This document shows positions 2 to 63,080 of a stretch of DNA of 64,000 bases, piece by piece. The translations under genes and the position numbers were made by a program. The first letter of the stretch is position 1. Each line of letters begins with the position of its first letter. This DNA comes from Acetobacteraceae bacterium (GTDB taxonomy: Bacteria > Pseudomonadota > Alphaproteobacteria > Acetobacterales > Acetobacteraceae): contig OZ255622.1 in the NCBI GenBank assembly GCA_965276715.1, positions 2,534,642 to 2,598,641 of the forward strand. Reading direction: 5' to 3'. A model generated the notes under the pieces. That model was given only the letters and a program-made list of their open reading frames with translations, made no database searches and had not been told where the DNA came from.

Positions 2-487
2 GGCGATGCCGTCGTGGGGCACGCCGACGGCAACGTGACGCTGGTCGAGTTCTACGATCCGCGCTGCCCGTATTGCCGGCGCATGGTGCCGACGATCGAC
101 CAGGCGGCGGCAGCCGACCCGAAATTGCGCGTGGTGCTCAAGGTGATCCCGATCCTGGGGCCGCAGAGCGTCCTGGAGTCGCGCGCGATCGTCGCGGCCG
201 GCCGGCAAGGCGGCTATGTCGGGATGCAGGAGGCGCTGATGCGCGAGCAGTCGCCGGCGACGGCCGATACGATCGCGTCGATCGCGCGCGGCTTGCGGCT
301 CGACCCGGCGCGTCTCGCGCGCGACATGCAGGATCCGGCGGTTCTGGGCCACTTGAACGACAATGTGGCGCTCGCGAAGGCGCTCCATATCGACGGGACG
401 CCGGCGCTGGTGATCGGCGACCAGCTCATCTCAGGCGCGCTGGACATGGCGGACCTGCGCAGGGCCGTCTCGGACGCACGCGGATAG
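2..487 (+). CDS. DsbA-family thiol:disulfide oxidoreductase (5' end outside window)
   Basis: ORF is open to the window edge. It has a thioredoxin-fold CPYC active site (FYDPRCPYCRRMVP) and a DsbA-like HIDGTPALVIG segment. Confidence 0.7.
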   Translation, partial: GDAVVGHADGNVTLVEFYDPRCPYCRRMVPTIDQAAAADPKLRVVLKVIPILGPQSVLESRAIVAAGRQGGYVGMQEALMREQSPATADTIASIARGLRLDPARLARDMQDPAVLGHLNDNVALAKALHIDGTPALVIGDQLISGALDMADLRRAVSDARG

Positions 488-4358: not shown

Positions 4359-4632
4359 GGATCGGCATATCTGGCGGTTTCGATGCGTTTCGGGGCAACT
4401 CCGGACATCTTCCGAATTCGCTGTTTGCAATCGAAAACGAGAAAACCGCAGACGCGATCACCTTCTCGAAGACGAATTGGAGAGAGGTTGGCGATCACGG
4501 CAGACCAAGCCGCACCCGAGCCTCGGCCCGGCCCCAGTTACCGCCCCCCGCTTCTGAACGCTCGATTTCAATCATGTGGCGCGACACGACGACGTTATGC
4601 AACGATCCGACGGTCAGAGACGTGAGGTTCGT

Positions 4633-5496: not shown

Positions 5497-5719
5497 AAGC
5501 CTGCGAATCATCGACCGCTCGCGCTGACGGCAAAGATGCCAGGGTGCGCACTCCGGTCAACCCCGGTGGGTCCTTGCAATGCTCGGCGCAGACGCCTGCG
5601 CGTGGCTTCGGTCCCGGCCTGCTGCCGCCGGTTGGTGTCCGACGGGTATCCAAGCGGCGCCCCGAATGCTGACACCCGGACACCAAGGGCGCTCAACCCA
5701 TTGGCCTGACTGAAGGAAT

Positions 5720-5794
<75 letters not shown>

Positions 5795-5983
5795 GCCTGA
5801 CCGGCGGCGGGCAGGTTCGGGCGCGTCTTACCCGGCCGCGCGAGGAACCGCAACCGAGACGCCCCGTTGACCGGCGCGGCGCCAGGCCGCATGTCCGAGC
5901 GTTGACGAGACTGGAGACGACGCATCCTTGCCAACACTCCGCGGCCCGCCGGCGCGGGCGGCGATCATCAGGCGACGCACCGC

Positions 5984-7288
5984 GTGGTCGAGGGGCTGCG
6001 GGAATGTCCCGACTGCGGCCTGTTCCAGGTGGTTCCGGACAGCGCGCCGGGCGAGACGATCCGCTGCGCGCGCTGCGCGAGCTGGCTCCGCCGGCACCGC
6101 GCGGACCCCACGAGCCTGGCGCTGTCGCTCAACGTGACCTCGCTGGTGCTGTATCTGGTCGTGCTGTCCCTGCCGCTGATGACGCTCGATCTGCTGGGCC
6201 GGCTGCACACGGTCAACGTGCTCACCGGCCCCATGGCGCTCTGGGCCGACCAGGGCGGCCTGGCGCTGGTGGGATCGCTGGTGCTGTTCGCGACCGTGCT
6301 GATGCCCGGCGTGGTGATCGGGCTCAATCTCGTGGTGCTGGCGGGCGCGCGTCGCCCGGTCAGTCCGCGCCATCTGCCGCGGCTGATGCGCATGCGGAAA
6401 TACCTGCGACCCTGGTCCATGGTCGAGGTCTACATGCTCGGCGTGTTCGTGGCCTACACCAAGCTCGTCGATCTGGCCCATGTCGATCTGGGGCCGTCCA
6501 TCTTCGCGCTGGCCGCGATCATGGTGCTGATGATCGGCGCCGACGGCGCCTTCGACACCGAAGCGATCTGGGACAAGATCCAGGCCGAGCGGCGGACGGG
6601 TCCGGGGTCGGCGACGTGCGCGGCGGACGAGGGCCTGGCCGACACGCGGCGGCTGATCGCATGCCACAGTTGCGAACTCGTGGTGCAGGCGGCGCGCGGT
6701 CCTGACCCGCATTCCTGTCCGCGCTGCGCCGCGGCGCTGCACCGGCGCGAGCCCAACAGCCTGCAGCGGACGATGGCCTTCCTGCTGGCGTCCGCGATCC
6801 TGTATGTGCCGGCGAACCTGCTGCCGGTGCTGACACTGACCCGGTTCGGCCGCGGCGAGCCGAGCACCATCCTCGCCGGCGTGGAGGAGCTCTACAAGAG
6901 CAACATGCTGCCGCTGGCGCTCCTGGTGTTCGTGGCCAGCATCTGCGTGCCGTGCCTGAAGGTGGTCGGGCTCACGGTGATGGTGGTGATGACGCGGCTT
7001 CGGGCCAGCGCCGGCCTGATCGACCGGACGCGCCTGTTCCGGGTGATCGACTTCATCGGACGCTGGTCGATGATCGATGTGTTCATGATCTCGATCCTGG
7101 TCGCGATCGTGCATTTCGGCTTCCTCGCCAACGTCACGGCCAATCCGGGGATCGTGGCGTTCGCTCTCGTGGTGGTGCTGACGATCTTCGCCGCCGAGGC
7201 GTTCGATCCGAGGCTGATGTGGGACGCGGCCGCGGGACGACAGCGTGAACGCCCGCGGATGGTCGCCGACGCGCGGGCCGCGGAGTGA
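5984..7288 (+). CDS. pqiA: paraquat-inducible protein A (two PqiA repeats)
   Basis: Two Cys-pair modules (CPDCG...CARC and CHSCE...CPRC), each followed by TM segments. GTG start. Confidence 0.85.
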   Translation: MVEGLRECPDCGLFQVVPDSAPGETIRCARCASWLRRHRADPTSLALSLNVTSLVLYLVVLSLPLMTLDLLGRLHTVNVLTGPMALWADQGGLALVGSLVLFATVLMPGVVIGLNLVVLAGARRPVSPRHLPRLMRMRKYLRPWSMVEVYMLGVFVAYTKLVDLAHVDLGPSIFALAAIMVLMIGADGAFDTEAIWDKIQAERRTGPGSATCAADEGLADTRRLIACHSCELVVQAARGPDPHSCPRCAAALHRREPNSLQRTMAFLLASAILYVPANLLPVLTLTRFGRGEPSTILAGVEELYKSNMLPLALLVFVASICVPCLKVVGLTVMVVMTRLRASAGLIDRTRLFRVIDFIGRWSMIDVFMISILVAIVHFGFLANVTANPGIVAFALVVVLTIFAAEAFDPRLMWDAAAGRQRERPRMVADARAAE

Positions 7289-8979
7289 GCGGCCGCTCGG
7301 ACGACGGCCAGGACGAAGCCCCGAGGCCGGTCGCTTCCGTCAGGCGCGCGCGGTTTTCCGCGATCTGGACCATCCCGATCATCGCGCTGATCATCGCGAT
7401 CTTCCTGGGCTACCGAACGATCACGTCGAGCGGCGCCCTGATCACGATCAGCTTCGAATCGGCCGAAGGCCTGACCGCTGGGCAGACGCAGGTCAAGCAC
7501 AAGAACGTGGCCCTCGGCACCGTCGAGGCGATCAGGCTGACGCATGACCTGCGCGAGGTGCTGGTCAACGTGCGGATGACGCGCGAGGCGAACCGGATCC
7601 TCAACGACAAGACCCGCTTCTGGGTGGTCCGGCCGCGGCTGTCGGGCTCGAACATCAGCGGGCTCGAGACGCTGGTGTCGGGCGCCTACATCGCCGTCGA
7701 CCCGGCGCCCGAGGGCAACCCGACGAAGGAGTTCGACGGGCTGGAATCGCCGCCCGGCGTCCGGTCCGACGAGCCGGGACGCACCTACACGCTGATGACG
7801 GGCAACGTGAACTCGATCGGCGAGGGCTCGCCGGTGTTCTTCCGCGGCATCACGGTGGGCGAGGTGCTGGGCTACAAGATCCCGCCGTCGGGGCGCGGGC
7901 CGATCCCGGTGCAGGTGTTCGTCCGCGAGCCGTACGATCATTTCGTCCGGGTCGACACGCGATTCTGGAACGATTCGGGTGTCGAGGTTAATCTCGGCGG
8001 CGGCGGCCTAAAGGTGCAGGTCGAGTCGCTGCAGGCGGTGCTGTCGGGCGGCGTCGGGTACGGGATCAGCGAGGAGCGTCGCGGCCTGGATGTGCCGGAG
8101 GCGCCGGACGAGGCGGTCTACAAGCTCTACGACACGCGGGCCGACGCCGACTCGGCTGGCTATCACCGGCGCATCCCGTTCGTGACCTACCTGCAGAACT
8201 CGGTCAAGGGCCTGGAGGTCGGCAGCGAGGTCGACCTCTATGGCATCCAGATCGGCAACGTGACGGACGTGAAGCTCCAGCTCGACCGGTCGGGAACGGC
8301 GCGGGTGCGGGTGGCGATGGAGGTGCAGCCCGAGCGCGTGTTCGCCGGCGACGAGCTGCACGGCGAGACGGCCTCCGGCTTCACGCGCAAGCTGGTCGCC
8401 AACGGCATGCGGGCGCAGTTGAGCTCGGCGAGCTTCATCACCGGCGCCTCGCTGATCAGCTTCGAGTTCGTGCCCAACGCCAAGCCCGCCGACATCAGCA
8501 TCGAGGGCGACGCGATCGTCCTGCCGAGCGAGAAGGGCGGCCTGTCGGGCATCACCGACAGCCTGAGCGATGTCGCGGCCAAGCTCGACAGCCTGCCGCT
8601 GACCGAGATCGCCTCGCATCTCGACGATGTGCTGGCGGGCGCGGGCCGGACGGTCAACGACCCCGACCTCAGGCAGGCGATCCACCAGCTCTCGGGCACG
8701 CTCGCCAGCATCCATGGCCTGGCCGACCACGCCAATCATGGCCTGACGCCGTTGCTGCGCGAGCTACCGGCGATGTCGGACCAGTTGCAGCAGACGTTGC
8801 GTCACGCCAACACGCTGCTCGCGAGCTACAACGGCGATTCGGATTTCGGCAGCAACCTGAACGCGCTGATGGGCCAGTTGTCGGACATGGCGCGCTCGCT
8901 GCGCCTGCTGTCGGATTACCTGCAGCGGCATCCGAACTCGCTGATCTTCGGGCGAAGCGCGCCGGGCCGGCACGAGTGA
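7285..8979 (+). CDS. pqiB: intermembrane transport protein PqiB (multi-MCE/MlaD)
   Basis: N-terminal TM followed by repeated MCE domains. The GTGA start/stop overlaps pqiA. Confidence 0.85.
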   Translation: MSGRSDDGQDEAPRPVASVRRARFSAIWTIPIIALIIAIFLGYRTITSSGALITISFESAEGLTAGQTQVKHKNVALGTVEAIRLTHDLREVLVNVRMTREANRILNDKTRFWVVRPRLSGSNISGLETLVSGAYIAVDPAPEGNPTKEFDGLESPPGVRSDEPGRTYTLMTGNVNSIGEGSPVFFRGITVGEVLGYKIPPSGRGPIPVQVFVREPYDHFVRVDTRFWNDSGVEVNLGGGGLKVQVESLQAVLSGGVGYGISEERRGLDVPEAPDEAVYKLYDTRADADSAGYHRRIPFVTYLQNSVKGLEVGSEVDLYGIQIGNVTDVKLQLDRSGTARVRVAMEVQPERVFAGDELHGETASGFTRKLVANGMRAQLSSASFITGASLISFEFVPNAKPADISIEGDAIVLPSEKGGLSGITDSLSDVAAKLDSLPLTEIASHLDDVLAGAGRTVNDPDLRQAIHQLSGTLASIHGLADHANHGLTPLLRELPAMSDQLQQTLRHANTLLASYNGDSDFGSNLNALMGQLSDMARSLRLLSDYLQRHPNSLIFGRSAPGRHE

Positions 8980-9608
8980 GCGAGGGGAGGGGACGATTGG
9001 GCGACGTGACACGGCGCGGCGTGCTGGGTCTGCCGCTGCTGGCACTCCCGGCGCTCGCGGGCTGCGGCAGCGGCGATCCGACCTATTTCACCCTCGAGAC
9101 GTCGCCCGGCGCGGTCCGGCGCGGCGGCCCGTCGCCGATCGAGGTGCGGACGCCGAGCGTCGCCGCGTTCCTCGACCGCGACTACATCGTGCAGAGCACG
9201 CAGGGCTACCGGCTCAAGCTCGCCGGCAACGACGCATGGGCGGAAGCGATCGCCGACATGATCGCGCGCGTGCTGACGTCCGACCTGTCGCAGAGGCTGC
9301 CGGACGCAACGGTGTTCCGGGCCGGCACCGCGATCGGCGGAACGCCGTCGGCGATCGTGGCGCTGGTGGTGGACCGGTTCGACGAGGACCAGTCCGGCAC
9401 CGCGGTCGTCCACGCGACGCTCGCCGTCCATCCGGTGGCCGGGGAGGCGGCGAGCGTGCCGGTCGCGTTGTCCGAGGCGCCGGCCGGTTCCGGCACCGCC
9501 TCGCTGGTCGCGGCACTCAGCCATCTGCTGGGGCTGGTGGCGGACCGGGCGGCCGACCGCCTGCTCGCCTTGCCGCCCTCGGGTGCGATGCCGCTCGCCT
9601 CCGGCTGA
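8976..9608 (+). CDS. pqiC: PqiC-like ABC-transport auxiliary lipoprotein (DUF330)
   Basis: Lipobox LAGCGS. The GTGA overlaps the pqiB stop. It occupies the third position of a pqi operon. Confidence 0.75.
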   Translation: MSEGRGRLGDVTRRGVLGLPLLALPALAGCGSGDPTYFTLETSPGAVRRGGPSPIEVRTPSVAAFLDRDYIVQSTQGYRLKLAGNDAWAEAIADMIARVLTSDLSQRLPDATVFRAGTAIGGTPSAIVALVVDRFDEDQSGTAVVHATLAVHPVAGEAASVPVALSEAPAGSGTASLVAALSHLLGLVADRAADRLLALPPSGAMPLASG

Positions 9609-14472: not shown

Positions 14473-14799
14473 TCACCGGGAGCTGGTGCCGAGCAGGCGT
14501 TGCCGCCATTCCGGCGGCAGCTTGGCGCGCACCATCTCGCTCGCGGCGATCATCTGCTCGAGCGCCGCGAGCAGGGCGGCGGCGAGCAGCGGCGTGACGT
14601 GCGGTCCGGTCCCGTAGGTCGACACCTGGAGCCGCCCGGGCGACTGCACGATGGCGACGCTGGCCCAGTGGTTCGCGTCGATGTCGGCCGCGACGATCGA
14701 CAGGTCCTCGAGCAGCCGCATCGTCCGGAGCGCGGTCTGGTCCTCGCCCTGCGAGGCGGTGTTGCCTCGGAAGGCGGGGCTGAGCTGGAACGGGTTCAT
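14473..14799 (-). CDS. hypothetical protein (108 aa)
   Basis: Internal Met (MNPFQLS) preceded by AAGGAG 8 nt upstream. Divergent from the AlbA_2 gene. Confidence 0.5.
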   Translation of the reverse strand: MNPFQLSPAFRGNTASQGEDQTALRTMRLLEDLSIVAADIDANHWASVAIVQSPGRLQVSTYGTGPHVTPLLAAALLAALEQMIAASEMVRAKLPPEWRQRLLGTSSR

Positions 14800-14991
14800 C
14801 GACAAACTCCTTTTGGAGGCTTGCCGACAATGACCTGTTTTCCTGACCAGCCGGTTAACCGGCAACCGACTGATGTCCATGCTCGCCCTCGCGGAGCCCC
14901 AGAGGACATGAAGCGGGCTCCACGGACGAAGAGACCGCGCCGCAGTGACCCTGACCCTCCTTTCGGGTTGATCCGGCTTTGTCCAAGTGAA

Positions 14992-15052
14992 GTTTGATCT
15001 TAGTTTGACAAAGGGCTACGTTTTGTAGGGCATCATCAAACTAGGATCAAAC
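14992..15052. promoter_or_regulatory. 17-bp inverted repeat (candidate operator) abutting the start codon of the next gene
   Basis: The arms gtttgatcttagtttga (14992-15008) and tcaaactaggatcaaac (15036-15052) match at 16 of 17 positions. The repeat lies in a 254-bp divergent intergenic region. Confidence 0.45.
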
Positions 15053-15053
15053 G

Positions 15054-16853
15054 TTGCCCCGGGATTTCGTAGACGAAGCCTTGAGGAAGATAGAAGGAGG
15101 CGCCCGACCAGCGTCCTGCGAAACGTCCTCGCTGGATTTCAAGGAGCAAACGGGCTCCAGGCCGGACCTCGAAAGCGCAATTGCCAAAGCCGCCGTGTGC
15201 TTTGCGAACACGGCGGGCGGAGCAATCGTGATCGGGGTGTCGGATAGGGGAATCGGCGCACATGCCCTGACGGGTACGGACATGGATGCCGACCATCTCA
15301 AGCAGCGACTCCTGGAACTCACGAGACCGTCGATCCTGGCGAATATCGAGGTCCGGAACTTCTTCGTGCGCCTCCTGATCGTCAATGTGAACGCCAGTTC
15401 CACGGTTCACGCCGATACACAGGGTCGATCGTGGCATCGCGTCAATACCAGCTGTCTCCCGCTCACGCCGGCCGATCAGGCCAGGATCTCCCAGGAGCGG
15501 AGCGGCTTCGATTGGTCCGCTCAGAACTCGCGGCTGCGCTTGGGTGATGTCTCGTCCGAGGCTCTTCTTGCGGCTCGGGCACTGCTTCGTCGTCTTCCCG
15601 ATGACCGCCGCCAACTGGCGGCATATTCGAATGAGGATCTTCTCGCGGCTTTGGGCGTGACATCGGATCGTGTTCACCTGACCGAAGCCGGGCGTCTTCT
15701 GTTCTGCGAAGACGCATCCGCATGGAATGTCATCGCCTATCAATACAAGGCGACGCCAGGTGGCGAGCCGAGAACCGTCCAGCGACTACCTCCGCCGATG
15801 CTCACGGCGTTTGGGCAGGTCATGCAAATCATTGCTGCGAGACAGAGCACAACGCCTGTTGCGATGCCCAACGGACAGCAGATCAGCATCGAGGACTTTC
15901 CGACCATTGCGGTCCGCGAAGCTCTATCAAACGCACTTTGTCATCGAGACTGGCAAGCAGCAGAGCCGATCGCCGTCGATCATTCCCCAGAAGTATTCTC
16001 GGTCACATCGCCTGGGCCGCTCGTCAGCGGCGTCACGCCCGAGAACATTCTGACAATGCCATCACGACCAAGAAACCGATGCTTGGCAACCGCTGCCCGC
16101 ACTTTGGGACTTGCCGAGGAGACAGGACGCGGCGTGGACCGCATGTTCCGCGAGACGATACGTTCGGGGAGACAGCCCCCGAACATAGAAGCCTTTCCAG
16201 ATCGAGCTAGGGTGTCGTTCGTTGGCGGAGCGCCGGACACGAACATCGCCCGCTTTGTCGCTCGGCTACCGGATGACGAGCGTGAAGACACGGATACGAT
16301 GTTGTTGCTCTATCACCTGTGCAGGCGACAAACCGTAAACTCTGAAAACTCGGCGGTTTTCTTGCAGAAGTCAGCCATCGAATCGGAGGCTGTCCTTCGA
16401 CGTCTCGCGGCTGAGCCTGCAAACCTGCTTGAGACCACAAGGCACTCCAGGAGTAGATCCCGTACGGTCTACAGATTGCGTGGCGACGTGGTGAAGGGTC
16501 TCGGGGCCGCCGTAGCCTATAATCGCCGGACGGTGGACGAGACGGATCGGAAGATCATCGAGCATGTTCGCGAATACGGGAAGATTACGAACAGGACTCT
16601 GCAGAACCTCTTTGACGTTCATGTGTATAGAGCGCGGGATTTGATCTCCAGTCTGCAGCAACGCGGCATCTTGGCCCGGACGTCGGAGCAAAGCCGTGGG
16701 CCGAGGGTCGAGTGGGGACCCGGACCGGGGTTCCCGAAGGGCCGACAGGGCCGGAAGGGCGCTGTCGAAACCCGACCCGCGGCCCTTCACGCCGATGGAG
16801 AGCAACCAGAACTTCCGCTGCGGAAGCCGGAGCATTCCACGCGCGCAAAATGA
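15054..16853 (+). CDS. AlbA_2 (Schlafen-like) plus HATPase_c_4 ATP-binding putative regulator (RecG-like annotation family)
   Basis: SSLDFKEQ and AVCFANTAGGAIVIGVSD (AlbA_2 part), REALSNALCHRDW (HATPase_c_4 part) and a C-terminal wHTH-like region. TTG start. Visibly lower GC than the flanks. Confidence 0.65.
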   Translation: MPRDFVDEALRKIEGGARPASCETSSLDFKEQTGSRPDLESAIAKAAVCFANTAGGAIVIGVSDRGIGAHALTGTDMDADHLKQRLLELTRPSILANIEVRNFFVRLLIVNVNASSTVHADTQGRSWHRVNTSCLPLTPADQARISQERSGFDWSAQNSRLRLGDVSSEALLAARALLRRLPDDRRQLAAYSNEDLLAALGVTSDRVHLTEAGRLLFCEDASAWNVIAYQYKATPGGEPRTVQRLPPPMLTAFGQVMQIIAARQSTTPVAMPNGQQISIEDFPTIAVREALSNALCHRDWQAAEPIAVDHSPEVFSVTSPGPLVSGVTPENILTMPSRPRNRCLATAARTLGLAEETGRGVDRMFRETIRSGRQPPNIEAFPDRARVSFVGGAPDTNIARFVARLPDDEREDTDTMLLLYHLCRRQTVNSENSAVFLQKSAIESEAVLRRLAAEPANLLETTRHSRSRSRTVYRLRGDVVKGLGAAVAYNRRTVDETDRKIIEHVREYGKITNRTLQNLFDVHVYRARDLISSLQQRGILARTSEQSRGPRVEWGPGPGFPKGRQGRKGAVETRPAALHADGEQPELPLRKPEHSTRAK

Positions 16854-16962
16854 GAATTCCAGACAAGCGCCGGCATTGGCGTCGCCACGAATGCCGCTCT
16901 CGACGTCTCGCCCCTAGACTAGATCGCCTCGAGATCGCCGTTCTCGATCAAAATCAACCGAC

Positions 16963-17276
16963 TGGTGTCCGCGGCGGGATTCGAACCCACGGCCCCAGGA
17001 TTCAATCCACTTCGGCTTTCGCCGCCGGACCCGCGTCGCACGCGGTGCCGTTCGTGGTCTGGACTGTCCCTTCACCGTGGACGCCGTCCGGCGTCGTTAG
17101 GTGCCGCCCTTCCAGTCTCTACACCTTCCCGCCTGACGGCGGGCTTGGCTCGGGATCGGCACCGTGCGAGCGCACGAAGCGTTCCCCGACTTTGAGCGGA
17201 TCCACGGTGCCGTTTCCGGACACCGCGCCCAATTCGATCAGGAATCCTGTGCTCTATCCTGCTGAGCTACGCGGAC
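16963..17276 (-). tRNA. tRNA-Arg(CCU) interrupted by a group I intron
   Basis: The exons at 17276-17240 and 17002-16963 join to a canonical 77-nt cloverleaf with anticodon loop TTCCTAA and an encoded CCA. Confidence 0.85.
17003..17239 (-). ncRNA. group I intron (IC3-like) in the anticodon loop
   Basis: Follows the U of CCU and ends in G. GGG lies 9 nt into the intron and can pair with exon CCU. The core strings CCGAGCCAAGC and GAAGGTGTAGAGACT match the Azoarcus tRNA-Ile ribozyme as I remember it. Confidence 0.8.
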
Positions 17277-17361
17277 CTCGTCGGTCTGACGGGCCGCACC
17301 ATAGCGCCGCCGCCGGGTGCTGCAAGAGCCGAGCGGCCTGCGGCAAGGCGCCGGTGGAGCG

Positions 17362-18378
17362 TCATCCGCGCGCCCTGGCCGCCGCCTGGCGGGCGACGGT
17401 CGCGAGCAGGTGGCGGCAGAGCGCGAAGTCGGGGGCGCCGGTCTGCTTGCAGGCGAGCTCGGTCCGGTTGGTCTCGCTCGCCGCCCGTTCAAGCTGATCG
17501 ACCGTCCACAGGCCGAGCGCGCGGGTGAAGGCGGGCTGGCGCTTGTAGAACACCGGCGGGCGCGCCGCCCGGGTGGCGTCCGACGGCGAGACGCCCTCGG
17601 TCTCGACGGCGATGCGGGCCGCCCGCAATTTGTGGAAATGATAGAGCAGGGAACGGGCGATCTGGACCGGTGCGGCGCCGTCGGCGATGGCGCGCTCGAT
17701 GGCGCGGTCGGCGGCCGGGATGTCGCCCACGGTGGCGGCGTGGAAGGCGTCGTCGAGGGAAAGCGCGGAGGCGTCGGCCACGCACGCCTCGACGGCACCG
17801 AGATCGATGTGGGCGGACTCGCCGACATAGAGCACCAGCTTCTCGACCTCGCCGCGAGCGGCCGCGCGATCGGCGCCCAGCTGGTCGGTGAGCGAGGCGA
17901 GCGCGTCGGCGTCGATCCGGCAGCCCTCCCGCTCGATCATCTGGCGCAGGGTCGCGGCGAGCTGGCGCCCTTCCTCGGGATAGCAGGAGATCACCGCGGT
18001 GGTCTTGCCCGCCTCGAGCGACGCGCGGAGCTTCGAGCGGGCCGGCAGGGACGACGCCTCGATCACGACCAGGCTGTCCGCGTTCGCCCGCAGCACCCGC
18101 TCGACCGGCGCCAGCAGCGACTCGACGGCGTCGCGGACGCGGATCACCCGCCGGCCGCCGATCAGGGACAGCGCGGTCGCCTCCTCCTCGAGACGGTCGT
18201 GGGTGTCGCGCTCGAGTGACGCCACGCGAAAGGCGTCGTCGAGGCTGCCGGCGACGGCGCGGGTCAGCCGGTTGGCGCGCTCGCGCACCAGGCCGGCATC
18301 ATCGCCATGCAGCAGGACGACCCGGCAGGCGCCGGGGTCGGACAGGAAGCGCTCGATGCCGCGCGCGTCGAGCTTCAA
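17362..18378 (-). CDS. holA: DNA polymerase III subunit delta
   Basis: The N-terminus reads ..VVLLHGDDAGLVRERA. Conserved leuS-lptE-holA order. Confidence 0.85.
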   Translation of the reverse strand: MKLDARGIERFLSDPGACRVVLLHGDDAGLVRERANRLTRAVAGSLDDAFRVASLERDTHDRLEEEATALSLIGGRRVIRVRDAVESLLAPVERVLRANADSLVVIEASSLPARSKLRASLEAGKTTAVISCYPEEGRQLAATLRQMIEREGCRIDADALASLTDQLGADRAAARGEVEKLVLYVGESAHIDLGAVEACVADASALSLDDAFHAATVGDIPAADRAIERAIADGAAPVQIARSLLYHFHKLRAARIAVETEGVSPSDATRAARPPVFYKRQPAFTRALGLWTVDQLERAASETNRTELACKQTGAPDFALCRHLLATVARQAAARARG

Positions 18379-18923
18379 GCGGGCGGTCGCGCCTGCGTTG
18401 CGTCAGGGCGCGCTTGTGCCCGGGCCTCGTCATGGCGCTTGAACCAGGCGGCGAGCTGCAGCGTGATCTCGTCGGCGAGGTTGGCGGCAAGCCGGGTCTG
18501 GGTGGTCTCGCCGGACATCGTGCTCTGGAAATATTGCTGATCGATGTTGTCGAAGCCGTCCACCGTGCGCGCGCTGCTGTTGGCGAGGATGACGGGCGCG
18601 ATGCCGACGGTGCGCAACGTCCAGTTCGCGGTGCCGACCTCGCGGGTGAAGGTCGTCGAGTTGTCGGGCTGCACGGCAATCCCCGATGCGCTGAGACTGG
18701 GCGCGACATCGAGCTGGTAGAGGGCCGACGTGCCCGAGGCGGGGTTCTGCAGGTCTTCCTGCAGCGCCTCGCGAAGCTGCTGGCCGTAACGGCCGCCGAT
18801 GTTGTTGACATAGATCGACGGCAGATCGGCCGGCCCGCCGGGCCCGCGCGCATAGAGGGGCTCGAAGCCGCAGCCGGCGAGCCACAGCAGCAGCAGGACC
18901 GCCGGGCGTGGACCGCCGGTCAT
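18375..18923 (-). CDS. lptE: LPS-assembly lipoprotein LptE
   Basis: Lipobox [11 protein letters not shown]. Overlapping start/stop with both neighbours. Confidence 0.8.
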
Positions 18924-21499
18924 GCCGGAGCCAGCACGAAATTGACGATCCGGCCGGGGATGTGGATGCGCTTGACGATGCGCCGTCCCTCCAGGAGGCG
19001 GGCGACGTTGGGTTCACGCTCCGCCGCCGACAGCACGTGGGCTTCGGGCGCGTCGACCGCCATCTCGACGGTGCCGCGCAGCTTGCCGCCGATCTGGATC
19101 GCCATCGTGATCCTGGTGCGGACCAGGAGCTCGGGGTCGGCCTCGGGATAGGCGCGCTCGGCCGCGAGGGGGCTGTCCGGTTCGAGTCGGGCGACGATGT
19201 CCTCGGCGAGATGCGGGATGATGGGTGCGGCGAGCAGGGCGGCGGACAGGGCGGCCTCGCGCCGGGCCCAGGCGAGGTCGGGGGTGTCGGGCGCGCGTTC
19301 CGCGTCGGCCATGGCGGAGGCGAGCTCGTGGAGCCTGGCCACCGCCACGTTGAAGCCGAAGCCCTCGATGGCCTCGGTGACGGCGGCGATGGTGCGGTGG
19401 GTGGTGTGCCGGAGCGTGTCGGCGGCCTCGCCGAACCGGCCGGGCTTGCCGAGGGCCGGCAGGCGGGCGGCGGCATCCGCCAGGCGGTGCAGCTTCTGGA
19501 TGAAGCGCCACGCGCCGGCGACACCGGCCTCGGTCCATTCGAGGTCGCGTTCGGGCGGGTTGTCGGAGACCATGAACCAGCGCGCGGTGTCCGCACCGTA
19601 GCGCTCCAGGATCGCGGACGGCTCGATCACGTTGCGCCGCGACTTGCTCATCTTCTCGACCCGGCCGACCGCGACAAGCGCGCCGGTGCCGGCGCGGGTG
19701 GCGCCGCCTTCGGTCCGCTCGATCTCCTCGGGATAGAGCCAGCCCTCGTCGTCGCGATAGGTCTCGTGGGTGACCATGCCCTGGGTGAAGAGGCCGGCGA
19801 AGGGTTCGTCGATGCCGAGATGGCCGGCCTGCTTCATCGCGCGGGTGAAGAAGCGGGCATAGAGCAGATGCAGGATCGCGTGCTCGACCCCGCCGACATA
19901 CTGGTCGACCGGCAGCCAGGCGTCGGCGGCGGCGCGGTCGACCGGGACGGTCGCGCGCGGCGAGCAGAAGCGGGCGAAATACCAGGCGCTGTCGACGAAG
20001 GTGTCGAGCGTGTCGGTCTCGCGCGTGGCCTGGGCGCCGCAGGACGGGCAGGCCACGTGCTTCCATGTCGGATGGTGGTCGAGCGGATTGCCCGGCACGT
20101 CGAAGCGCAGGTCGGACGGCAGGCGGACCGGAAGCTGCGCGCGCGGCACGGGGATGACGCCGCAGGCGGGACAGTGGATGACGGGGATCGGGCAGCCCCA
20201 GGGGCGCTGGCGCGAGACGCCCCAGTCGCGCAGGCGCCAGTTGACCACGCCCTCGCCGGCGCCGATCGCCTCGAGGCGCTCGATGGCGGCGCGCTTGGCG
20301 TCCGCGGTCGGGAGGCCGTCGAGGAAGCCCGACGCGATGATGTCGCCCGGGCCGGTGTAGGCGGCTTGCGTCACGTCGGCGGGCTCGCCGTCCGCTGTCG
20401 CGATGACGGAGCGGATCGGCAGCGCGTATTTCGTCGCGAACTCGTGGTCGCGTTCGTCATGGCCGGGACAGCCGAAGACGGCGCCGGTGCCGTAGCCGGC
20501 GAGCACGAAATTGGCGATCCAGACCGGGAATGCGGCGCCCTCGATGAAGGGGTGGGCGACGCGAAGGCCGGTGTCGTAGCCCTGCTTCTCGGCGGTCTCG
20601 ATGACGGCCTCGCTGGTGCCGAGACGGCGGCACTCGGCCACGAACGACGCGGCGGCGGGATCGCGTCCGGCGCAGGCCGCCGCGAGCTTGTGCTCGGCGG
20701 CGATGGCGATGAACGACATGCCGAACAGCGTGTCGGGCCGGGTGGTGTAGACCTCGACGGTTTCCGCCGATCCCACGATCGGAAAGCGGACGCGCGCGCC
20801 CTCGCTGCGGCCGATCCATTTCTCCTGCATCAGGCGCACGCGCTCGGGCCAGCGGTCGAGCGTCGCGAGGCCGTCGAGCAGTTCGCCCGCGAAGGCGGTG
20901 ATGCGGAAGAACCATTGCGACAGGCGGCGTGTCTCGATCCCGGCGCCCGACCGCCAGCCGCGGCCGTCGATCACCTGCTCGTTGGCGAGCACGGTCTGAT
21001 CGACCGGATCCCAATTGACCAGGCTCTCGCGCCGGTAGGCGAGATCGAGGCCCAGCAGGTCGAGGAACAGCGCCTGCTGCTGGCCGTAATATTCGGGATC
21101 GCAGGTCGCGAACTCCCGGTCCCAATCCACCGCGAGGCCGATCGGCGCCAGCGCCTCGCGCATCGCCGCGATGTTGGCGTAGGTCCAGTCGGCGGGGCTG
21201 ACGCCGCGATCGCGGGCCGCGTTCTCGGCCGGCAGGCCGAACGCGTCCCAGCCCATCGGGTGCAGCACGAGATGGCCGCGGGCCCGCTTGTAGCGGGCGA
21301 TGATGTCGCCGATCGCATAGTTGCGGACGTGGCCCATGTGGATGCGGCCCGACGGATACGGAAACATGTCGAGCGCGTAATAGGTGCGGGCGTCCGGGGG
21401 TGGGACGTCGGGGACGGCGAAGCAGCGCCGTTCGGCCCAGACCGACTGCCAGTGGCGCTCGACGGCGCGGGGCTCGTAGGGCCGGGTCTCGGCGTCCAT
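18920..21499 (-). CDS. leuS: leucine--tRNA ligase
   Basis: 859 aa with a HIGH-type motif ([11 protein letters not shown]) and KMSKS. Confidence 0.95.
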
Positions 21500-61431: not shown

Positions 61432-61986
61432 ATGTTCATCGTCCTCGCCTACCTGATCGGATCGATCCCGTTCGGATTGCTGCTGACCCGGGCCGCCGGG
61501 CTGGGCGATATCCGCAAGGTGGGCTCGGGCAATATCGGCGCGACCAACGTGCTGCGGACCGGGCACAAGGGGCTGGCCGCGGCGACGCTGCTGCTCGACG
61601 GCCTGAAAGGCTTCGCCGCCGTCGCGATCGCGACCGAAGCGGGATGGGCCGCGATCGCGGTGGTGGTCGGGCATTGTTTTCCGGTCTGGCTGCGGTTTCG
61701 CGGCGGCAAGGGGGTCGCGACCGGCCTGGGGGCGCTCTACGGGCTCGACTGGCGGGTGGGCGCCCTCGCGTGCGCGGTCTGGCTGGCGCTCGCGGTGCTG
61801 ACCCGGCGTTCGTCGGCGGGTGCGCTCGGGGCGTTCCTCGCGTCCCCGGCGATCGCTGTCCTGCTCCATTCGCACGCGCCGGTCTGGGCGCCGGCCGCGA
61901 TCGCGGTGCTGGTGTGGGTCCGCCACCGCGCCAATATCGGCAGGCTGCTCGCCGGCACCGAGCCCGCGATCGGCGGGCGCGGGTGA
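61432..61986 (+). CDS. plsY: glycerol-3-phosphate acyltransferase PlsY
   Basis: YLIGSIPFGLLL and GSGNIGATNVLRTG. Confidence 0.9.
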   Translation: MFIVLAYLIGSIPFGLLLTRAAGLGDIRKVGSGNIGATNVLRTGHKGLAAATLLLDGLKGFAAVAIATEAGWAAIAVVVGHCFPVWLRFRGGKGVATGLGALYGLDWRVGALACAVWLALAVLTRRSSAGALGAFLASPAIAVLLHSHAPVWAPAAIAVLVWVRHRANIGRLLAGTEPAIGGRG

Positions 61987-63080
61987 GCGACCGGCTCGAT
62001 CTGGTCCGGCTCGCGCGTGCCGAGGGGGTGGGGCCGGTGACCTACCGCCGCCTGCTGGCGCGCTTCGGGGACGCGGCCGAGGCGCTCGCGTCGCTGCCCG
62101 CCGTCGCGCGGCGCGGCGGAGCGGGCGCGCCGCCGCGGGTCCCATCGGCAAGTGCCATCGCGCGGGAGGCGGGCGATCTCGCGCGGCTGGGCGGGCGTTT
62201 CCTGCTGCTCGACGAGCCGGACTATCCGGCCGCTCTCGCGGCACTCGACGACGCGCCACCGGTGCTTTCCGTGCTCGGCCGGGTCGAGTTGCTGCGGGCG
62301 CGGTCGGTCGCGATCGTGGGCGCGCGCAACGCGTCGGCCAACGGGCGGCGGTTCGCGGAAGCACTGGCGGCCGAACTGGCGCTGGCCGGCATCGTGGTGG
62401 TGTCGGGGTTGGCACGCGGCATCGACACGGCGGCGCATCGCGGGGCGCTGTCGCGCGGGGCGACGATCGCCGCGATCGCCGGCGGCCTCGACCGGCCCTA
62501 CCCGCCGGAGAACGCGACGCTGCAGCAGGAGATCGTGGACGTGGGCGGGACGGTGGTGGCCGAGCAGCCGCTCGGCACCGTGCCCACCAACCGGCATTTC
62601 CCGAGGCGCAACCGGATCATCGCCGGACTGTCGCTCGGATGCGTCGTGGTCGAGGCGGCGCCGCATTCCGGCAGCCTGATCACGGCGAACATCGCGCGCG
62701 ACAATGGCCGCGAATTGTTCGCCGTTCCCGGCTCGCCGCTCGACCCGCGTTCGCGCGGTTCGAACGCGCTGCTGCGCGAGGGCGCGCATGTCTGCGAGAG
62801 CGCCGCCGACGTGCTGGCCGACCTGCCGGCGGCCCCCGGCATGGTTGCGATGTTCCGGCCCGCACGGCCCAGGGCACCGAGAGCGGAACCGGTGCTCGTG
62901 CCCGATCCGGTGTCGGTGGCCGATGTGGTCCTGGGCCTGCTCGGGCCGGCGCCGACCAGCATCGACGACCTCGTCAGGAGCTGCCAGTTCTCGGCGGCCC
63001 TGGTGACAGGCGCGCTCGCGGAGCTGGAGATGATGGCCAGGATCGAGATGCTGCCCGGGGGGAAGGTCGCGCTGAGGTAG
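61983..63080 (+). CDS. dprA: DNA-processing protein DprA
   Basis: VSGLARGIDTAAHRGAL and SGSLITA. The GTGA overlaps the plsY stop. Confidence 0.85.
   Translation: MSDRLDLVRLARAEGVGPVTYRRLLARFGDAAEALASLPAVARRGGAGAPPRVPSASAIAREAGDLARLGGRFLLLDEPDYPAALAALDDAPPVLSVLGRVELLRARSVAIVGARNASANGRRFAEALAAELALAGIVVVSGLARGIDTAAHRGALSRGATIAAIAGGLDRPYPPENATLQQEIVDVGGTVVAEQPLGTVPTNRHFPRRNRIIAGLSLGCVVVEAAPHSGSLITANIARDNGRELFAVPGSPLDPRSRGSNALLREGAHVCESAADVLADLPAAPGMVAMFRPARPRAPRAEPVLVPDPVSVADVVLGLLGPAPTSIDDLVRSCQFSAALVTGALAELEMMARIEMLPGGKVALR

Follow-up and report, generated by a model that had tools for sequence, protein, structure and literature searches.

The window analyzed here, a 64,000-nucleotide (nt) stretch of contig OZ255622.1 from an Acetobacteraceae bacterium, carries on its minus strand a tRNA-Arg(CCU) gene whose anticodon loop is interrupted by a 237-nt insert with the structure of a group I intron. 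An earlier note on this DNA, made from the sequence alone, had proposed this arrangement, and the exon strings, the 237-nt gap, the 77-nt cloverleaf, and the encoded CCA that it gave are borne out by an exact minus-strand match and by ARAGORN. We put the probability at about 93% that the locus is a functional tRNA-Arg(CCU) gene split by an IC3 intron that lacks an open reading frame (ORF) and belongs to the alphaproteobacterial tRNA-Arg(CCU) family. The boundaries of its parts are as follows.

16963..17276, minus strand: whole split tRNA-Arg(CCU) gene, 314 nt, composed of a 37-nt exon 1, the 237-nt intron, and a 40-nt exon 2.
17240..17276, minus strand: 5' exon, 37 nt, an exact string match, with the acceptor 5' strand, the D arm, the anticodon stem 5' strand, and loop nucleotides UUCCU.
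17242-17240, minus strand: CCU of the 5' exon, which is the P1 5' strand; U-1 is the U at 17240.
17003..17239, minus strand: intron, 237 nt, IC3 group I, with no internal protein-coding capacity, matched by the covariance model R1 (below) and partially by Rfam.
16963..17002, minus strand: 3' exon, 40 nt, with loop AA, the anticodon stem 3' strand, the variable loop, the T arm, the acceptor 3' strand, discriminator A, and the encoded CCA.

When joined, the exons make 77 nt that ARAGORN calls tRNA-Arg(cct), a cloverleaf with stems of 7/4/5/5 base pairs (bp), among them the 7-bp acceptor stem and the anticodon stem CAGGA/UCCUG, with the loop UUCCUAA and an encoded CCA. An intron-aware search of the genomic sequence, one of the checks proposed in the earlier note, returned tRNA-Arg(cct) i(38,237). 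The insertion falls between anticodon nt 36 and nt 37 (mature loop UUCCU/AA), the tRNA has one extra D-loop nucleotide, and the ligated exon junction is predicted to read GGAUUCCU followed by AAUCCUGG. A20, C35, and discriminator A73, which are arginine identity elements for Escherichia coli ArgRS, can all be read off the spliced sequence, and over its entire length the gene can be aligned with 14 Arg(CCU) intron genes of other genomes.

Standard annotation passes over this gene. Default ARAGORN called tRNA-Thr(CGU) at 5720-5794 alone in the window and missed the split tRNA-Arg; Rfam at its gathering thresholds likewise reported the tRNA-Thr alone, with no match at the intron locus. Both misses are false negatives and not evidence of absence. 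Two further intron-containing tRNA calls by ARAGORN, at 5720-6427 and 8345-9509, were rejected as artefacts; neither has an R1 or Rfam intron match, and the first just extends the real tRNA-Thr.

Both core motifs that the earlier note had attributed to the Azoarcus ribozyme, CCGAGCCAAGC and GAAGGTGTAGAGACT, are present in the insert. A pattern scan of species-representative genomes, using P6 and J6/7-P7 strings that were slightly shortened and partly degenerate, found at least 120 loci. Since 5,292 tRNA group I introns have been mapped in ∼80,000 genomes (Williams 2020), and given our scan, the statement that such introns are rare in bacterial tRNA genes was too strong. Among the matches listed, intron-aware ARAGORN identified tRNA-Leu(UAA), Met/Ile(CAU), Arg(CCU), Phe, Thr, Ser, and other hosts; the core motifs also occur in ARAGORN-called tRNA(CAU) introns among these matches, and the set includes betaproteobacterial genomes. 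At least 15 of the loci listed have a tRNA-Arg(CCU) split at the same site as in the window, one of them (L097) cut by the end of the locus. They come from Bartonella (three), Rhodobacter, Neorhizobium, Phyllobacterium, Mesorhizobium, Methylorubrum, Xanthobacter, Skermanella, and Acetobacteraceae or other proteobacterial metagenome-assembled genomes (MAGs), and their full-length blastn identity to the window gene is 72 to 82%. A Nostoc Arg(CCU) call (L088) was left out as a different tRNA. Five of 15 Arg(CCU) genes (L081, L057, L119, L010, and L065) were called His(atg) by ARAGORN, which end-to-end alignment overturned; calling the splice site from the exons alone is unreliable unless U-1, omega-G, and P1 are checked.

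An explicit P1-P10 model was drawn from a MAFFT alignment (A1) of 15 Arg(CCU) introns including that of the window. Gene positions below count from the first exon base on the minus strand, so that the window coordinate equals 17277 minus the gene position.

17228..17233, minus strand: internal guide sequence; AUU (17233-17231) pairs with 3' exon AAU as P10, and GGG (17230-17228) pairs with exon CCU as P1.
Gene 35-37 with 47-49, minus strand: P1, 3 bp, with U37.G47 at the splice site; C-G, C-G, and U.G are invariant in 15/15 (100% paired).
Gene 44-46 with 275-277, minus strand: P10, 3 bp, AUU/AAU, 84% paired in 15 sequences.
17203..17227, minus strand: P2 hairpin (gene 50-60 with 65-74), 10 bp with one bulged U; all 10 pairs are compensatory.
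17216-17213, minus strand: L2 GAAA tetraloop, invariant.
17194..17199, minus strand: P3 5' strand CCGCUC, pairing with 17109-17104 (gene 78-83 with 168-173).
17104..17109, minus strand: P3 3' strand GGGCGG, which closes the P3/P7 pseudoknot.
17193-17191, minus strand: J3/4 AAA, directly after the P3 5' strand.
17150..17189, minus strand: P4, J4/5 AA, P5, and J5/4; P4 is 17189-17184 with 17155-17150 (gene 88-93 with 122-127).
17180-17159, minus strand: P5 hairpin (gene 97-118), simple, 22 nt.
17123..17149, minus strand: P6/P6a (gene 128-154); P6 closing pairs G.U and C-G, internal loop CAAG/AAG, and P6a CCCGCC-GUCA-GGCGGG.
17114..17122, minus strand: J6/7 and P7 5' strand, GAGACU with A at 17118 bulged; P7 is gene 158 and 160-163 with 212-216, A159 bulged.
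17073..17103, minus strand: P8 hairpin (gene 174-204), with tetraloop-receptor-like CCUAAC...CACGG.
17061..17072, minus strand: J8/7 AAGGGAC and P7 3' strand AGUCC, nearly invariant in the family.
17004..17060, minus strand: P9.0 and P9 three-way junction, with P9 CCAC/GUGG, a variable P9a hairpin, and P9b with a GAAA cap.
Gene 218 with 273, minus strand: P9.0, G 17059 with U 17004.
Gene 220-223 with 267-270, minus strand: P9; P9a is gene 227-251 and P9b gene 253-264, with the P9b GAAA at 17020-17017.
17003, minus strand: omega-G (gene 274), the last intron nucleotide, which abuts the 3' exon; invariant in 15/15 and 7/7 in our alignments.

As had been proposed, the insert follows directly on the U of CCU and has G as its last nucleotide, and the GGG guide lies nine nt into it (intron nt 10-12), placing a U.G pair at the splice site in 15/15 genes. 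IC3 introns are compact, lack P5abc, a P2.1 extension, and an ORF, carry GNRA tetraloops on L2 and L9, and have a P8 receptor for L2. The window intron is 237 nt long and ORF-less, with a simple P5 that lacks P5abc, no P2.1 extension, and GAAA on L2 and L9b; the U-1.G pair, omega-G, and both GAAA loops are all invariant. The Arg.5Ug class was itself assigned to IC3 by Williams 2020. The IC3 type suggested in the earlier note thus stands on structure, on covariation, and on a 201-bit match to R1.

In alignment A1, 50 pairs were testable, and 96.5% of their cells are paired, versus 30 to 41% when the 3' partners are slid by 1 to 3 columns. Fifteen pairs changed on both sides (all of P2, three of the six in P3, and one each in P8, where A-U became G-C, and P9b), and none of 500 shuffles reached the observed values. 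Since P4, P6, P7, and P9 do not vary in the Arg family (P4 and P7 are 100% paired), the test was widened to other tRNA hosts. A covariance model, R1, was trained on 14 Arg(CCU) introns with the window excluded, and 102 IC3 introns found in many different tRNA genes were aligned to it, P7 being deliberately kept outside the model. In this alignment, 96.2% of cells are paired versus 30 to 46% after sliding, and 34/44 pairs are compensatory, including P3 (6/6, with 99.4% of cells paired), P5, P8 (4/4), P9, and P9b, while P4 is 99.5% paired with two compensatory pairs. P9 and P9b covary, and the length of P9a differs among close relatives. A model-fitted alignment favors the model's own pairs, but this bias affects neither P7 nor the A1 test, which was built with MAFFT: P7 is 99 to 100% paired and nearly invariant although absent from the alignment model, its 5' strand pairing with 17065-17061 (AGUCC) in 100% of the 15 sequences and 99.1% of the 102. 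By homology, P7 would be the guanosine-binding helix.

R1 matched the window intron at 201 bits (E = 1.3e-55) over model positions 1-236 of 236, and this was its single match in 64 kb. A chance likeness is excluded because the R1 E value is ∼1e-55 and the match is the only one in the window. The covariance-model check proposed earlier was thus passed decisively with the family model and weakly with Rfam: a permissive search of 551 nt with RF00028 (Intron_gpI) gave a partial match of 26.3 bits (E = 1.1e-4, model positions 50-157 of 253) spanning P3, P4 and P5, P6, J6/7, the P7 5' strand, and the P3 3' strand.

Two ORFs overlap the gene, a 261-aa ORF at 16712-17497 on the plus strand, which the earlier note had rightly dismissed as spurious, and a 196-aa ORF at 17238-17828 on the minus strand, and one could imagine that the region codes for protein and only happens to resemble a tRNA and an intron. 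Both ORFs do exist mechanically. However, neither has a Pfam match, long spurious ORFs are expected because the DNA is ∼70% GC (about 70 to 74% in the window), and close relatives differ inside the ORF by indels that are not multiples of 3. Moreover, a perfect tRNA, covariation, and an R1 E value of ∼1e-55 cannot be incidental. We therefore regard the chance of a coding region as negligible. One relative (L124) has a public gene call for a DUF347 protein (ORF 5752-6858) that runs over most of its split tRNA-Arg (5709-6013); in another (L125), the orthologous DUF347 ORF begins past the tRNA. The overlap in L124 seems to be an artefact of annotation that arose because the tRNA and its intron had escaped detection.

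Upstream of the split gene, on the same strand, lie three genes and a promoter-like element.

18920-21499, minus strand: leuS, upstream of the tRNA gene.
18375-18923, minus strand: lptE, upstream of the tRNA gene.
17362-18378, minus strand: holA, upstream of the tRNA gene; stop codon 17364-17362.
17298..17326, minus strand: promoter-like element downstream of the holA stop, with CTTGCA (17326-17321), 16 nt, and CTATGGT (17304-17298), ending 21 nt before tRNA +1.

The nearest named relatives of HolA are from Acetobacteraceae (55 to 57% identity), and MAG proteins reach 96%. Nine syntenic loci were reached through homologues of HolA, whose identity ranges from 96% to ∼55%, and in 9/9 of these a split tRNA-Arg(CCU) lies just downstream of holA in the leuS-lptE-holA order. 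The carriers include Gluconacetobacter azotocaptans, Acetobacter cibinongensis, Ameyamaea chiangmaiensis, and Rhizosaccharibacter radicis; in three loci (L124, L125, and L127), a TENA/THI-4 gene stands between holA and the split tRNA. When the window gene and six of these relatives (L123 to L128) are aligned, all seven genes agree in every one of the 77 exon nucleotides and show no variation in the catalytic core, although HolA identity falls to 57%. The differences are compensatory P2 swaps (U-A to C-G) and length changes in distal P6a, P8, and P9a. Because exons and core are invariant and the changes are compensatory or confined to distal hairpins, purifying selection appears to act on a working ribozyme and tRNA. 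Across the six relatives, identity to the window gene declines from 97% to 82% as HolA identity declines from 96% to 57%.

These data bear on the age of the intron. Near-identical cores are found in tRNA-Leu, Ile/Met, Phe, Ser, and Thr genes and on resistance plasmids, as might be expected if the intron had arrived recently by homing or reverse splicing and were not an ancient resident. Yet the 237 nt encode no homing endonuclease and leave no room for one, the intron occupies the same site in all nine syntenic relatives from several Acetobacteraceae genera, and gene identity falls together with HolA identity, so a recent mobile insertion has, in our view, a very slim chance of being the explanation. 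Instead, the intron seems to have resided in this Acetobacteraceae-like lineage for a long time and to have been passed on vertically, and it looks fixed and syntenic across several genera of this family.

Several observations weigh against a working split tRNA gene. The Rfam score of 26.3 bits lies below the curated gathering score of 50. The P8 receptor of the window and its closest relatives (CCUAAC...CACGG) departs from the canonical 11-nt motif CCUAAG...UAUGG found in several others (e.g., L028), with a C.C opposition where relatives have G.U, so that the L2-P8 contact could be weaker. The single-sequence minimum free energy fold lacks the group I core (z = -2.25), although the P6a hairpin is recovered. 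Generic sigma-70 promoter and terminator scans found nothing. Williams 2020 attributes low Rfam scores of this kind to the absence of bacterial introns from the Rfam seeds and for that reason used cutoffs of 18 to 20 bits. A free energy fold of this sort is to be expected for a pseudoknotted, GC-rich ribozyme; it lends no support and was set aside as uninformative. As for transcription, a similar promoter-like box precedes the gene in 6/7 syntenic relatives in our comparison; because the generic scan did not call this conserved box, we infer, rather than observe, independent transcription, probably from the gene's own promoter just downstream of holA.

The noncanonical P8 receptor also raises the question of whether a real intron is here no longer efficient on its own, being either part of a decaying pseudogene or dependent in vivo on a host protein chaperone or cofactor; many group I introns do need protein help in vivo (reviewed in the discussion of PMC7717549 and in PMC3984707). 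We consider this highly unlikely because all core elements are intact, helices change by compensatory substitution only, the exons are identical in the seven syntenic genes, and a pseudogene would not be maintained in place in 9/9 syntenic relatives. A functional gene split by a working intron therefore remains our preferred reading.

The closest studied relative is BbgpI of Bartonella bacilliformis, a group I intron whose host, a tRNA-Arg(CCU) gene, had gone unannotated; BbgpI was shown to self-splice, and its levels in Bartonella are high (Wachter et al. 2020; PMC7717549). The window intron shares with BbgpI the host tRNA, the insertion after CCU, and the P1-P9 plan, and standard tRNA annotation misses both. 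Three Bartonella genes (L004, L091, and L095), which were part of the R1 training set, match the window gene over its full length at 72 to 73% identity. The Bartonella copies in the set are 226 to 228 nt long and AT-richer, whereas the window intron is 237 nt long and ∼66% GC, with a longer P9a and different distal sequences in P5, P6a, and P8. Splicing of BbgpI has direct evidence; that the window intron is catalytic and is spliced in vivo, we infer by homology with it.

In PMC7717549, the family is traced to a first finding in Agrobacterium tumefaciens (Reinhold-Hurek & Shub 1992) and later ones in other alphaproteobacteria (Paquin et al. 1999), in keeping with the Agrobacterium precedent cited in the earlier note. 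The tRNA-Arg(CCU) intron of Agrobacterium falls in the class Arg.5Ug, one of four classical intron-interrupted bacterial tRNA types, all IC3 (Williams 2020). It has the same U-1, omega-G, and anticodon-loop position 5 as the intron in the window, and the Rhizobiales members (Neorhizobium, Phyllobacterium, and Mesorhizobium) are 76 to 77% identical to the window over the full gene. The window differs from this alphaproteobacterial family in having an Acetobacteraceae-like host, in which the intron looks fixed and syntenic and not sporadic.

The Azoarcus tRNA-Ile intron, to which the earlier note had likened the layout, agrees with the window intron in its 3-bp P1 and its P2-P9 plus P9.0 plan. 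We take it also to have a 3-bp P10, GAAA on L2 and L9, and the conserved P6/J6-7/P7 strings. Its P5 presumably carries the canonical 11-nt receptor, whereas P5 of the Arg(CCU) family has GCUUCG.../...CGGUGC. The window intron has a different tRNA host. It exceeds the Azoarcus intron by 32 nt, chiefly through a P9 built as a three-way junction (P9/P9a/P9b) in place of a single hairpin. The position in the anticodon loop is the same, these types being termed Arg.5Ug and Ile2.5Ug (Williams 2020). The Azoarcus intron, with 205 nt and P2-P9 plus P9.0, has been shown to self-splice (PMC13168695).

The IC3 core is also common to the tRNA-Leu(UAA) introns of cyanobacteria and plastids and of an aac(3)-IId plasmid copy (e.g., in pCTX-M3). 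Over intron nt 35-194, the plasmid copy matches that of the window at 77% identity; it likewise has a P9 three-way junction and scores 193 bits with R1. The tRNA-Leu(UAA) introns differ from that of the window in being inserted two nt earlier (after U34), into another tRNA and with another guide sequence. In a blastn search of the plasmid collection PLSDB, an intron core ∼77% identical to that of the window was found on ∼1,270 enterobacterial plasmids. In pCTX-M3 (NC_004464.2, about 61827-62133; L001:3937-4243), the intron-containing tRNA-Leu(UAA) sits beside an AAA-ATPase/aac(3)-IId/IS26 resistance module; the alignment of this intron spans the whole Rfam model, with a score of 36.8 bits that is also below threshold. 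The copy occurs at ≥99% identity in 636/5,426 complete E. coli genomes, in 588 plasmid and 82 chromosomal places. Among the matches listed, no RefSeq feature is annotated under the intron copy, and our literature search found no paper tying a group I intron to tmrB or ISCfr1.

Elsewhere among the scanned loci, a proteobacterial MAG contig (L025) has two IC3 introns ∼300 nt apart on opposite strands, at 5550-5775 (plus) and 6075-6259 (minus), one of which sits in tRNA-Leu(UAA). Other loci match only the P4-P6/J6-7 part of R1 (model positions ∼54-140, 36 to 44 bits): L080:1639-1709, L064:4092-4154 and 4385-4468, and further L021, L040, L051, L061, L066, L076, L111, and L114. Among the sources are MAGs of Patescibacteria/candidate phyla radiation, a Lachnospiraceae MAG in which there are two copies, and a contig assigned by binning to a Methanosarcinaceae archaeon. 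Possibly these loci are group I introns that have diverged further and differ in their peripheral elements. For the Methanosarcinaceae contig, faulty binning is possible; Williams 2020 had the same suspicion about comparable cases.

Next to the 3' end of the tRNA, on its downstream side, lies a low-GC stretch (14500-16900; ∼59 to 63% versus ∼72% around it). It contains a 599-aa, AGA/AGG-rich ORF with Schlafen/AlbA_2 and HATPase_c_4 domains (15054-16853, plus strand). A HATPase_c_4 gene is found at the same place in L123, the relative with 96% HolA identity, and not in L124 to L128. No integrase was seen in the ORFs scanned, nor is the tRNA 3' end, whose repetition would point to an integrated island, repeated anywhere in the 64-kb window. 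The stretch is probably an acquired islet beside the tRNA, possibly defense related.

AGG accounts for 2/80 arginine codons in leuS, 1/39 in holA, and 10/67 in the adjacent low-GC AlbA_2/Schlafen gene. The earlier note had suggested that AGG decoding would depend on splicing if this were the genome's only tRNA-Arg(CCU) gene. Neither default nor intron-aware ARAGORN found a second tRNA-Arg(CCU) in the 64-kb window; a tRNA-Arg(UCU) with modified U34 can read AGG too. Because AGG is rare in the native genes leuS and holA and frequent in the AlbA_2/Schlafen gene, one might suppose that the intron persists across Acetobacteraceae because its splicing gates the supply of a rare-codon tRNA, and not as a neutral passenger; GTP- or Mg-dependent splicing could then tune the expression of foreign or accessory genes. 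Alternatively, the excised intron might be an abundant small RNA with a second role, at which the high BbgpI levels in Bartonella hint (PMC7717549). We regard either suggestion as a long shot.

By analogy with its relatives, the gene would work as follows. The precursor would be transcribed, probably from its own promoter just past holA, and the intron would fold into a core of the P3-P9 and P4-P6 domains braced by the L2 and L9 GAAA tetraloops. Exon CCU and guide GGG would form P1 with U-1.G at the splice site, and an exogenous guanosine bound in P7 would attack after U-1. Omega-G (17003) would then enter the G site, P10 (AUU/AAU) would position the 3' exon, and the exons would be ligated. 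The predicted product is a 77-nt tRNA with the anticodon loop UUCCUAA, its 5' leader trimmed by RNase P.

The window intron joins a family known since 1992, one member of which was shown to self-splice, and in this respect it adds little biologically. For annotation, the consequence is that the genome would seem to lack a tRNA-Arg(CCU), because default ARAGORN and Rfam at its curated threshold miss the gene, and that spurious ORFs would be called over it. The fixed, syntenic pattern in Acetobacteraceae contrasts with the "sporadic" picture of the 1999 survey, and the locus offers a clean example of an ORF-less group I intron that appears to have been retained vertically over the long term.

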